A DNA stretch of 64,000 bases from Mobula hypostoma (lineage: Eukaryota): the NCBI RefSeq assembly GCF_963921235.1, contig NC_086108.1:2790001-2854000 (forward strand), given 5' to 3'. Shown here one piece after another: positions 1,092-58,720 of the stretch; within the stretch, counting starts at the first letter, position 1, and each line of letters begins with the position of its first letter. The notes beneath the pieces are model-generated. The model ran no database searches. It saw only the letters and a list, made by a program, of their open reading frames with translations, and was not told the DNA's origin. The position numbers and the translations under genes were made by a program.

Positions 1092-1939
1092 CTCATATTT
1101 CACTCTCTTTTCTTCTTCCTCTCCCTCCTCCTCTTCATCCTCACTATCCTCTTCTTTGCTGCTTTCCAAATCACGGTTCCTCTTCCACTCCTGTTCAATC
1201 TCACCCTCGTGTCTCTTCTTCAAGTCCACGCTAAAGTGATGGTGTCTCTTATCCTCGATCTCCTGTTGCTCGAGGGATTGCTTGCTACCCTCTCCCTGCA
1301 GGTGGGTTCCGACCCCCAGCATCTTCATCCCTTTCTGCCCTGCTTCAAACTGATCAGTCTCTTCATCACTGGCATTCTCCTGAACTCGCTTCTCAACACT
1401 CACCGGTCCGTGCTTGTTCCCCGTGCTGCCATCATCTTTCCCTTCACCCCAGTGTTTCTTCCCTCCTTGCTGGTTTCCCAGTTCCTGCTTGGCGATCTTC
1501 TTGAGGAGCTCATCGATCTTGAGGAGGTCACGTTCCTCTTGCCCAACCTCACTGGAACTTTGATCCTCCTCAGATGACTCACCATGCCTCCTCTCAGAAC
1601 TTTCTTTGTCTTTATCAACAACCTCTTCCTTGCTCGCATGGACCACTGCCTTGGTGTCATCTTTACTGTTAACAGCTTCCTTGTCTTCGTGTTGTTCCTC
1701 CATGTTCAGCTCTTCGCTTTTCTTGTTCTGCTCTTTGCTTTTCCTGTATCGCACCATGTCTTCCTCTTCCTTTGAAAGGAGATCCTTCTTCACATGGGAT
1801 CCTCCTTGGCCATTGAGATCTTCCCCCCTTTCATCCCTCTTCTCCAAATTCTCTGCCTCATTCCACTCTGTGACTCCTGCCATCGGGTAGTTCCACTTCT
1901 TGTCACCATTGAGAGACCTTTGCTTGGCTGAACTCTCTC
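1092..1939 (-). CDS. CCER2: Granin precursor large acidic coding exon 5 with many dibasic sites
   Basis: Lies within ORF 876..1958. Acceptor tgtttcttgtccacag, in frame with exon 4 (G|GA GAG AGT). E/K-rich with multiple KR/KK/RR sites and the motif KRVQENASDEETDQFE. The 3' end is inferred at GAG|gttggt (phase 0); alternative donors lie nearby. Confidence 0.85.
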
Positions 1940-8252: not shown

Positions 8253-8321
8253 CGTGATGTGTGAGTTCCTCCAGCTCCCTCAGAAGATTCTGATGATGCA
8301 CCATAGCCAGAACTGTCTCAT
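8253..8321 (-). CDS. CCER2: Granin precursor coding exon 4 (DETVLAMVHHQNLLRELEELTHH)
   Basis: Acceptor ccctctcctgctag and donor CACG|gtacag. 69 nt, phase 1 to 1. Matches CHGA DERILSILRHQNLLKELQDLA. Confidence 0.9.
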
Positions 8322-8560: not shown

Positions 8561-8651
8561 CTTCTTTGAGAATGTTGCTGCATTCATCACTGAGAGGCAG
8601 TGAGGGTTTGGAGAGAGTATCTGAAATCACCTCGGCAATACATCTGGTAAC
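8561..8651 (-). CDS. CCER2: Granin precursor coding exon 3: disulfide loop VTRCIAEVISDTLSKPSLPLSDECSNILKE
   Basis: Acceptor tctccccctgcag and donor GAAG|gttagt. 91 nt. Close match to the chromogranin A/B N-terminal Cys-loop (CHGA CIVEVISDTLSKPS...EC). Confidence 0.93.
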
Positions 8652-11064: not shown

Positions 11065-11111
11065 CTTATCATCGTCCTTCAGGATCTTGGATGACAGTGG
11101 TCGACAGGTCA
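11065..11111 (-). CDS. CCER2: Granin precursor coding exon 2 (VTCRPLSSKILKDDDK)
   Basis: Acceptor tttctctcttgcag and donor AAG|gtaaat. 47 nt, phase 1 to 0. Corresponds to CHGA VTALPVNSPMNKGDTE. Confidence 0.8.
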
Positions 11112-31266: not shown

Positions 31267-31312
31267 CCTGGTAACAGAGGAGCATCAAGACCGCGAAACC
31301 CCTGTAAATCAT
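31267..31312 (-). CDS. CCER2: Granin-family precursor (CHGA-like N-terminus, CCER2-like core), coding exon 1: signal peptide MIYRGFAVLMLLCYQ
   Basis: ATG at 31312 (context CACAATG), hydrophobic signal peptide, CAGG|gtaagg donor. 46 nt, ends phase 1 and joins exon 2 in frame. Resembles CHGA MRSAAVLALLLCAGQ-V as recalled. Gene symbol is tentative (alternative: CHGA-like). Confidence 0.8.
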
Positions 31313-38992: not shown

Positions 38993-39764
38993 CACTGGAC
39001 AAAAGTGTTGCTTTCTCAGAATTTTTTTTTTGTTTATGACAGACCGCTTGAAACTGAACACCAATATAATTCCAGACAATTTGTATCATGTAGGAATTTG
39101 GAGAAACAAGAAATTAACTTCTATAACATGTTTAATTGCATAATGGTGGTGACGCTTTGCAATAGTTCAACTAAACTAAAAATGTTTTCTTGATGATTTT
39201 CGTTTATACGCAGTGTCTGAGGCTTCTCATTCAACTGTCCAACAACAATCAGCCAGCATTGATGGATTCCAGTTGCCCTGATATGGTTTCTCCATGACCA
39301 CAATGTCCTGGTGAAACCTTTCACTATGTTTATCACTGACAGTGCCAAGATTTGCACTAAATGGGAACACAGAAAATAAATCTTTAGTGACATGTTGCAC
39401 TTCATGGTTTTGTATGCTTGAAGCACCTTGTCAACCAGCTGTATGTAGTTTGGTGCTCTGTAGTTGCCAAGAAAATTTTCAGCAACATCCTTAAATGCCT
39501 TCCATGTGACTTTCTCCAGTCCCACTAGAAGTTCTTCAAATTGCCTGTCATTGATGACCTGTTTGATTTGTGGACCAACAAAAATGCCTGCCTTAATCTT
39601 GGCATCAATTATTCTGAATGAATTATGAATTGAAATAACAAATATAGGCACTTTCAAAAAAATGGTGTGTGATATGGAAATGTCATGGTGATTTTCATCA
39701 GTGGCTGAAAATTCATGAGATATGCCCAAAGGTATTCAGAAATCTAAATCTTTGTTGCTCAGTG
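38993..39764 (-). mobile_element. Internally deleted Chapaev3-like DNA transposon
   Basis: CACTG...CAGTG termini with TAA on the right flank. ORF 39121-39729 with KIKAGIFVGPQIK...FLGNYRAPNY...MSLKI. Inserted in a copy of the repeat also seen at 32730-33100. Confidence 0.75.
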
Positions 39765-57122: not shown

Positions 57123-58720
57123 CAGGGGACCCAACCTTTTCTGCACTGCGGACCGGCTGACGGCGGGGGGTCGGGTGTTAATCATGACTGGAATATAGGT
57201 GATAAGTCAACTATAAGTCACTTATAAATGGCTAATACACTTAATTTCGTTTCTAAAAGGGTTTATCTAACGAATTTAATATTAAACACACACAGCGCAT
57301 ATTTTCCTCGCATGAATATAGTGATAAGTCAATTATAAGTCACTTATAAGTCAATAGCATCATAACATTTTAAGTAACGTTTGGATATTAAACACACAGC
57401 ACTTATTTTCCTCATATGAACATATAAAATCATTGCAACACACCAATATCGCTGAATCAGTGGGAGCCCTGGGCTTGTTTCCCTGCAACAAGACGGTGCC
57501 ATCGAGGGGTGAAGGGAGACATCGATACTCGAAGGGGGTTCCTGATGTCCAGTCTATTCCGCAATTTAGTTTTCATTGCATTCATTGCAGAAAACTCCGC
57601 TTCGAAGAGATATGATGTTGGAAATGGAAGCAACGTTTTCAGTGCTTTCATGGCTATCTCAGGATATTCAGCCTTGATTTTGATCCAGAATGCCAGCAGA
57701 GATGTTATGTCAAACAGACGTGAGTTGAGGGCTTTTGCTTTGATGTGATTGATAACTCCAACAACGTCACTCAATATGCTGTTAAGATCAGGTGACATTT
57801 TTCGGCTAGCCAGCATTTCCCTGTGTGTGACACAGTGTGTAGACTGGCATTCAGAAGCAACCTTTGACTCGGGGAGTGAAACCAGACGGCCGTCCAGTCA
57901 TAACTGCAGCCCCGCCTGTGCATATTCCAACACAGAATGACCAGTCCAGTTTGCCTGACATGTAGTCATTCAAAGACTTGAATAGTTCTGCCCCAGTTGT
58001 GTTAGTTGGCAGCGGCAGTGTACACAACATATCCTCATGCACACTGTCTTGAAATATATATTGCACATAAACCAGCAGCATTGCCTTGTTGTCAACATCG
58101 GTAGACTCGTCGCCCTGGATAGCATACCATGGTGACTCAATAAACCGTTCCAACAGCTGGGCTTCGATGTCCTCCGCTATGTCATCGATTCTCCTTGAAA
58201 CTGTGGTAGCTGAAAGAGAAACCTGTGCCATCTTGTTAGCTGCAGCTTCTCCCAACAGTTCACGGCACATGTCCTTGGCAGCAGCCAGAGTCAGTTCTTC
58301 ACCAACAGTGAAAGGCTTCTTAGCCTTAGCAATACGGCTAGCCACTAAGTACGACGCTCTCAGAGCAGCAGCATTTATGGAGGTGGTGTCTCTCAGCACT
58401 TCCTTCTGTCCCGCTTGCTCACGTTTTTTCCGCTCGAAAAACTCAACGGGTTTGTCTTTAAGTGCAGGGTGCTTGGACTCGAGGTTCTGAAGCAGTTTTG
58501 AGGGCTTCATTGCCTCACTAGACAGCGTGTCTTCACATATCACACACAGGGGACTTGGTGCGTGCAAATCACCGGTCGCAAAAAAGCCATATTTTATGTA
58601 CGACTCGTCGTATTTTTTGTTGAAGAAAGCTTTCTTTTTTTTGCAGTCTCGGCCTCGGCTGTCTCTGCGTTATCATCATCGTTAGGCCTTTTATGTCCCC
58701 TACCATCTCTTCCAAAGGGA
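57123..58720 (-). mobile_element. hAT Charlie/Buster-type DNA transposon, defective
   Basis: TIR-like CAGGGGACCCAACCTTTT at 57123. Transposase remnants: YDESYIKYGF, PLCVIC...MKPSKL..L.SKH, YAIQGDESTD, LLPFPTSYLFEAEFS. Internal deletion near 57715; 5' end lost at the CR1 junction. Confidence 0.9.

Follow-up and report, generated by a model that had tools for sequence, protein, structure and literature searches.

A probable CCER2-type chromogranin gene in the ray Mobula hypostoma, with one conserved segment behind a convertase-type dibasic site

Introduction

Does the large open exon on the minus strand of this 64,000-nucleotide stretch of Mobula hypostoma DNA (hereafter the window) encode an array of neuropeptides, as a first-pass annotation had proposed from five segments flanked by dibasic sites, and to which family does its gene belong? 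On the sequences compared here the array reading for the most part fails, and the lead candidate among the five segments and its link to CCER2 stand. The gene is likely to be a third chromogranin, in which a single segment, preceded by a convertase-type site, is deeply conserved. In the literature passages that name it, CCER2 is assigned no molecular function and is used as a cell marker, a plasma-panel protein or a moyamoya candidate, not as a granin. The shark and ray proteins bridge CCER2 to the chromogranins, a link that mammalian CCER2 alone does not give, and this bridge would provide CCER2 with a family, a likely site of action (the secretory granules) and one precise segment.

Gene layout

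The window is repeat-rich vertebrate DNA, 46% of which was masked in a self-comparison, with numerous reverse-transcriptase frames. Searches with tblastn, using eight relatives as queries, placed five coding exons in it, four of them upstream of the large open frame (Table 1), and the label "exon 5" given in the first-pass annotation was thus correct. The first exon opens with ATG, AG acceptors precede exons 2 to 5, GT donors follow all five, and the phases keep one frame; intron 1 (11112-31266) spans about 20 kb. By alignment, the hydrophobic N-terminus encoded by exons 1 and 2 corresponds to the signal region of CHGA, and exon 5 is 96% identical to that of Mobula birostris, the closest named relative. 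In all eight relatives compared, the protein closes with another helix, some 25 residues long, that aligns with CHGA and CHGB; a sixth exon encoding this C-terminal helix is therefore expected outside the window, which would make six coding exons in all.

Two GT donors lie four bases apart at the end of exon 5 (1088-1092), the one at 1092 in phase 0 and the other in phase 1. The M. birostris gene model runs past the first of them; read-through gene models of CHGA and CCER2 stop after a Glu at the matching place, which favours the phase-0 donor. All parts stand in one frame in a protein of 392 residues, encoded by a contig of 1,617 bases and most similar to Amblyraja radiata, which points to a spliced transcript in a skate.

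Upstream of the gene (31400-64000) there are LINE reverse-transcriptase frames, transposase-like frames at 39121-39735 and 57457-58669, and tandem repeats at about 47.9-48.7 kb and 54.4-55.7 kb; inspection by eye of the 77 long frames between 31.4 and 64 kb of the window revealed no neighbouring gene.

Table 1. Exons, segments and dibasic sites of the gene, in window positions, with the number of proteins dibasic at each aligned site or the identity of each segment.
Feature	Positions	Strand	Other chondrichthyans	Non-mammalian bony vertebrates	Remarks
Coding exon 1	31267..31312	-			46 bases; opens with the start codon and encodes the larger part of a putative signal peptide; GT donor, phase 1; tblastn
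Exon 2	11065..11111	-			47 bases; end of the putative signal peptide and start of the mature protein; AG/GT, phase 1 to 0; tblastn
Exon 3	8561..8651	-			91 bases; two-cysteine chromogranin loop; AG/GT; tblastn
Exon 4	8253..8321	-			69 bases; codes for helix 2 of the vasostatin-like N-terminal domain; AG/GT; tblastn
Exon 5	1092..1939	-			848 bases; one open frame with 282 whole codons, phase 1 to phase 0; codes for the acidic and largely disordered mid-protein; 13 basic clusters
KK13-14	1896..1901	-	11/11	0/26	sharks and rays only; at about the position of the CHGA vasostatin-I site, a likeness in position only
Segment 1	1842..1895	-	51%	17-19%	KK...KR, 18 residues; 5% in mammals
KR33-34	1836..1841	-	9/11	26/26	behind the N-terminal domain
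RR116-117	1587..1592	-	8/11	26/26	absent from the first-pass list
KK146			3/11	2/26	opening KK of segment 2
Segment 2	1461..1496	-			KK...G-KK
KK160			9/11	4/26	closing KK of segment 2
KR183-184	1386..1391	-	11/11	26/26	most conserved predicted convertase site
19-residue block	1329..1385	-			directly behind KR183-184; hallmark of CCER2-type proteins
Segment 3	1251..1385	-			KR...KR, 45 residues; predicted product in this ray
KR230-231			10/11	20/26	closing site of segment 3; mammals without a shared counterpart
Segment 4	1221..1244	-			KR...KKR, His-rich 8-mer; 34-46% in non-mammals, 1% in mammals
KKR240			7/11	13/13 (coelacanth, caecilians, salamanders, reptiles); 0/13 (frogs)	
Segment 5	1185..1211	-	30%		KKR...KR, 9-mer; 9-18% elsewhere
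KR252			11/11	4/26	closing site of segment 5
KR277			10/11	1/26	

Granin membership and orthology to CCER2

The first-pass reading of the gene as a granin was borne out by the Pfam Granin family (PF01271), whose cut-off of 25 was passed by all six near full-length shark and ray relatives (33.4-47.7 bits). Exon 3 of the window alone scored just below it (23.2 bits, E = 4e-05), and exon 5 alone returned no family in the Pfam scan. Exon 3 codes for both cysteines of the loop and aligns with CHGA and CHGB, the N-terminal domain matched CHGA in a profile comparison at E = 3.2e-39, and the chain is acidic (D+E 25-26%, with 12-15 basic clusters, in two relatives). A search of solved structures gave a single match, the 25-residue chromogranin A peptide 6r2x, on the exon-4 helix (E = 4.4e-06). 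AlphaFold modelling of the protein from M. birostris (pTM 0.22) gave a helix at either end and others at residues 104-129 and 184-207; pLDDT is under 50 in 170 of the 363 residues and in most of exon 5.

A profile of seven shark and ray proteins was searched against 1.84 billion representatives and yielded 90 matches. After one of the profile's own members, the top ranks went to two proteins named CCER2 in RefSeq, a caecilian one at E = 1.8e-45 and a lizard one at E = 1.4e-40; the best CHGA ranked below them at E = 2.6e-29. Several of the relatives bear the RefSeq name "chromogranin-A-like". Catshark, chimaera and electric ray each have a separate CHGA. Among the matches listed from a second search (120 of 336) were CCER2-type proteins of coelacanth, amphibians, reptiles, placental mammals and more sharks; none was named from birds, crocodilians, marsupials or monotremes among these 120, and a single teleost (Albula) was found among the CCER2-type matches of the searched representatives, neither of which is evidence of absence. 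Some lizard and frog CCER2-type proteins carry the automatic name "Chromogranin A", so that annotation pipelines half-see the link. Two lamprey proteins, one from Petromyzon and one from Lampetra, are annotated as uncharacterised or as "ABC transporter F family member 4-like"; both possess a chromogranin N-terminal domain and the C-terminal helix, and both lack the block described below.

A tree was built for 46 proteins from 95 columns of the N-terminal domain and C-terminal helix, with the block excluded and the Narcine CHGA row dropped because it missed the loop pattern. The shark and ray gene grouped with CCER2 (support 86.5/86), and CHGA formed a clade with its own shark members (92.4/97). 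With all 46 rows and a fast search, an AU test did not separate the alternatives (p = 0.57 for grouping with CHGA as a whole, 0.57 and 0.12). After removal of four mammals and Albula, a shark-only duplicate of CHGA was rejected (p = 0.001), as was, narrowly, a grouping with CHGB (p = 0.042), and grouping with CHGA as a whole stayed unrejected (p = 0.185). The gene is very probably the CCER2 orthologue, and CCER2 a third chromogranin of jawed vertebrates beside CHGA and CHGB, chiefly because the block is shared, CCER2 outranks CHGA in the search and sharks have a CHGA of their own.

Mammalian CCER2 itself matched CHGA directly with a profile probability of 38%, and none of six mammalian proteins passed the Pfam Granin cut-off, which those of coelacanth, caecilian and turtle pass and those of lizard and toad just miss. 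The exon-4 helix is missing in mammalian CCER2 (12% identity) and kept in that of coelacanth, amphibians and reptiles, and the mammalian protein has two extra cysteines after the loop; these changes are the likely reason why it goes unrecognised as a granin.

Dibasic sites and candidate peptides

All five segments and their flanks are present in one open minus-strand frame as the first-pass annotation gave them, and the 13 basic clusters of the exon include others besides those used there. In 20,000 shuffles of the 282 residues of exon 5, KR pairs proved to be enriched (6 observed against 1.78 in shuffles, P = 0.0035) and dibasic pairs of all kinds to be in mild excess (14 against 8.65, P = 0.026); in the same exon KK (6 against 4.45, P = 0.27) and Gly followed by a dibasic pair (1 against 0.75, P = 0.55) stood at chance level. 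Sites were scored in 11 other chondrichthyans and 26 non-mammalian bony vertebrates by the presence of a dibasic pair at most two residues from the aligned position, which is a lenient measure in a basic-rich, low-complexity chain (Table 1). By this score three sites, KR33, RR116 and KR183, are old across jawed vertebrates, with likely counterparts in 66 (as KK), 68 and 70 of 83 mammals, respectively.

When the KR-bounded segments were aligned across orthologues, the first 19 residues behind KR183-184 were found to be kept, and the other four segments were not kept in mammals. The claim of a multi-peptide array loses its footing here, since segments 1, 2, 4 and 5 are restricted to sharks and rays or to non-mammals. 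Segments 1, 2 and 5 share 9-19% of their residues with the orthologues of non-mammalian bony vertebrates and 5-18% with those of mammals, and even within chondrichthyans the four segments (30-51%) are no better kept than the bulk spacer (48%). The amidated peptide proposed in segment 2 is not supported: the Gly directly before the closing KK is shared with Mobula birostris alone (1/11 relatives), the pattern stands at chance level in the shuffles, and the opening KK lies inside the predicted helix 184-207 of the M. birostris model. By analogy with other granins, segments 1, 2, 4 and 5 are likely to be spacer by-products.

A helix at window positions 1455-1541 is conserved only in sharks and rays and occurs in three tandem copies in the Scyliorhinus canicula protein. 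Homology to WE-14 of the shark helix before segment 2 had been suggested by eye and was unsupported in a profile test.

Segment 3 fared differently. Its conservation to mammalian CCER2, on which the first-pass annotation had based its choice of lead candidate, was recovered by profile comparison (probability 97%, E = 2.6e-11), and it is the best of the five in that it alone is deeply conserved, in its first 19 residues. Two limits go beyond the earlier description: mammals have no shared dibasic site close behind these residues, and 13 of 83 mammals have lost the KR in front of them.

The conserved block behind KR183-184

Conservation begins exactly at KR183-184, the residues ahead of the KR being variable. 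In a 55-row alignment with M. birostris as reference, the identity of the 19-residue block was 84% within chondrichthyans and about 69% to mammals; to frogs it was 50%, and to the group of coelacanth, caecilians, salamanders and reptiles 69%. To mammals, the cysteine loop reached 25% and the C-terminal helix 37%. All 124 CCER2-type proteins (12 chondrichthyans, 15 from coelacanth, caecilians, salamanders and reptiles, 13 frogs, one teleost and 83 mammals, with six near-duplicates excluded) had the block, matching 11-21 of 21 reference positions, a result that is partly built in because the profile of the second search held the block; the 12 chondrichthyan proteins all matched at least 15. The 93 other proteins (CHGA, CHGB, two lamprey granins and fragments, including partial CCER2 models that end before the block region) matched at most 9 of 21. 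Within mammals the block ranked fifth of 248 windows in column conservation (0.91), not above residues 91-119. A word-index search with the block region returned two rays alone, the index being too strict for 45 residues.

KR or RR stands ahead of the block in all 41 non-mammals, and KR in 70 of 83 mammals. The 13 mammals that have lost it (11 with KQ, two with QR) represent at least seven lineages: a rodent, three vespertilionid bats, Bos and a Bos-like protein, two Equus, two Macaca, two Ursus and Vicugna. KR is retained in their sampled kin Mus caroli, Pipistrellus, Eptesicus fuscus, Bubalus and Papio. The block is nearly as intact in the KR-less mammals as in the others (16.6 against 17.2 of 19 residues), which counts against the cleavage reading.

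Behind the block, the next dibasic pair lies 34-45 residues on in 10 of 12 chondrichthyans, 45 in coelacanth, caecilians and salamanders, 34-36 in frogs and 37-63 in reptiles, and in most mammals about 80 residues on or nowhere. No C-terminal cleavage site common to jawed vertebrates was found among the 124 proteins, so that the length of any product would vary by group and its N-terminus alone would be shared.

The Ursus block is the most decayed (13 of 19 residues), together with KQ; a chimpanzee (Pan) record has Lys in place of the glutamate that most mammals have in the Ser-x-Glu of the block; and a 203-residue protein of the bonefish Albula goreensis, the sole teleost CCER2-type protein among the matches, has a diverged block behind KR.

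CCER2 in the literature and in peptidomics

In the accessible passages of the papers that name it, CCER2 is measured in plasma and associated with migraine (PMC13088631), and is listed beside CHGB among brain microperfusate proteins (PMC9855636); both detections were counted in favour of secretion of mammalian CCER2. Other passages present Ccer2 as a cochlear hair-cell marker confirmed by in situ hybridisation (PMC7221106), and CCER2 as a marker of Merkel cell carcinoma (PMC12623243) and a candidate gene for moyamoya (PMC12511514, PMC7207206). The granin passage of a cichlid survey gives nine granins, CCER2 not among them (PMC4992253), and the main texts of a paddlefish lateral-line paper (PMC5429088) and a zebrafish gut paper (PMC12714231) do not mention it. 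The literature search found no paper treating CCER2 as a granin, although subscription journals, bioRxiv supplements and family databases lay outside it and may hold the link; the CCER2 passages of three of the five papers naming both state no link of descent between CCER2 and a chromogranin, and the block string was found in no paper of the search.

The peptide library of Foster et al. contains one CCER2 peptide, from another part of the protein (254-262), with no receptor paired to it (PMC6838683), and the block string is absent from their seven supplementary files, which fits their rule of 3-45 residues. Searches for CCER2 or the block string in the peptidomics supplements of Madsen 2022 and PMC8121762 gave no match and, being without a positive control, are not a fair negative. 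The same holds for the Secher 2016 supplement, where the WE-14 control was found and CCER2 was not, but the FASTA file lacked the block string, and for the organoids of Beumer 2022, where no CCER2 peptide matched and CCER2 stood at 0-4 counts. The lack of a processed CCER2 peptide in these four supplements counts against the cleavage reading, but at least two of them would have been unable to reveal one.

Proposed working and alternatives

The best overall explanation, to which we give an even chance, is a CCER2-type granule protein that is cut at KR183-184 and whose working part is the conserved first 19 residues behind the cut. Such a protein would be stored in secretory granules and secreted through them, and prohormone convertases would cut it at KR33, RR116 and KR183. 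Cutting at KR183-184 would, in rays, quite probably release a 45-residue acidic piece; its length would usually be 34-45 residues in sharks, coelacanth and amphibians. For most mammals it would be about 80-97, since the first dibasic pair that they share behind this cut lies in the C-terminal helix. Selection could then be keeping the freed N-terminal block, and not the surrounding spacers, through an action after release from sensory or neuroendocrine cells, a proposal for which the balance is level. For CHGA, sorting to dense-core granules and cutting by PC1 and PC2 at dibasic sites are established (PMC12074958), and Foster et al. describe known peptide ligands as conserved segments between cleavage sites (PMC6838683).

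A bolder form of this explanation, which we think unlikely, would make CCER2 an overlooked third chromogranin, and the fragment after the conserved KR an undescribed secreted signal that is retained between sharks and mammals and used by hair cells, Merkel cells and perhaps the electroreceptors of sharks. If that were true, a library screen of short, dibasic-bounded human peptides would have missed the fragment because mammals have no nearby C-terminal site.

The alternative that survives best, possible though on the whole doubtful, is that the block works as a short motif for binding, sorting or phosphorylation while still part of a granin that is uncut, or cut variably, and that the KR is secondary. 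The repeated loss of KR from an intact block in mammals speaks for it, as do the unshared C-terminal site and the motifs of the block itself: Ser-x-Glu, which is the Golgi kinase Fam20C consensus, is retained in 40 of 41 non-mammals (its middle residue altered in frogs) and 71 of 83 mammals, and is overlapped by an Asn-x-Ser sequon in all 12 chondrichthyans and the coelacanth. It is harder to reconcile with the unbroken KR or RR of the non-mammals, exactly where conservation starts, and the AlphaFold model gives the block no stable fold or packing (pLDDT about 50). Moreover, the Arg codon of the ray is CGA and, judging from this codon, a fast-mutating CpG may explain the repeated Arg-to-Gln changes as recent, mildly tolerated losses. 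The natural KQ variants of macaques, Bos, bears and some bats bear on whether the cut matters.

That the exon is after all a true array, with several active peptides including the amidated 11-mer, is very unlikely. The excess of KR over shuffles would agree with it, and sites 13, 230, 252 and 277, dibasic in 10-11 of 11 chondrichthyans, may give rise to several small pieces in sharks and rays; the enclosed sequences, however, are conserved no better than spacer within chondrichthyans, the Gly-KK is a chance-level pattern and the opening KK of the amidated candidate recurs in only 3 of 11 relatives.

That the gene is a second CHGA copy sharing a mere acidic motif with CCER2 is scarcely credible. 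The RefSeq names, the unrejected grouping with all CHGA and the possession of the exon-4 helix lean that way, and so do the Atlas clusters closest in features (Chromogranin-A at 0.95-0.96, CCER2 lower at 0.87). Against it, the block separates the 124 CCER2-type proteins from the 93 others, CCER2 of coelacanth, amphibians and reptiles has the exon-4 helix as well, the AU test rejects a shark-only duplicate and the WE-14 profile has no significant match in nine shark and ray proteins.

Comparison with known systems

Mammalian CCER2 shares with the ray gene the 19-residue block behind KR, the cysteine loop, sites matching KR33 and RR116, and a C-terminal helix ending in RRG-like residues. It differs in being shorter (about 265 residues), in lacking the exon-4 helix and in having no shared dibasic site close behind the block.

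CHGA, the precursor of vasostatins, WE-14, catestatin and serpinin, has the same N-terminal domain, C-terminal helix and acidic, disordered middle with dibasic sites, and the same intron positions around exons 3-4 and ahead of the last exon. The ray gene differs in that a single large exon separates exon 4 from the last, with six coding exons expected; human CHGA has eight according to the gene description in PMC12074958. CHGA lacks the block; at most the first 12-15 residues of the block weakly resemble a CHGA stretch right after WE-14 (2-10 bits). At window positions 1344-1391, the KR and the first dozen block residues resemble this pre-catestatin stretch in some non-mammalian CHGA rows. A CHGA profile picked the block as its best site in all 10 chondrichthyan proteins, with 0-16 of 300 dibasic-preserving shuffles as good, and in none of eight bony-vertebrate proteins; the reverse profile picked the CHGA stretch in 4 of 27, and whole-profile comparison with CHGA aligned the N-terminal domain only. 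These results, from a test chosen after the likeness had been seen, hint weakly that the start of the block may be homologous to the CHGA stretch.

CHGB (secretogranin-1) shares the cysteine loop and the C-terminal helix, and its layout, with one large middle exon, is that of the ray gene; it differs in lacking the exon-4 helix and the block, as seen in one CHGB cluster (armadillo). An analogy for the block is secretoneurin in secretogranin II, a lone conserved island behind KR in a fast-evolving acidic granin. Secretoneurin, however, is a proven product with dibasic pairs on both sides, whereas in the ray gene and its relatives the N-terminal site alone is shared.
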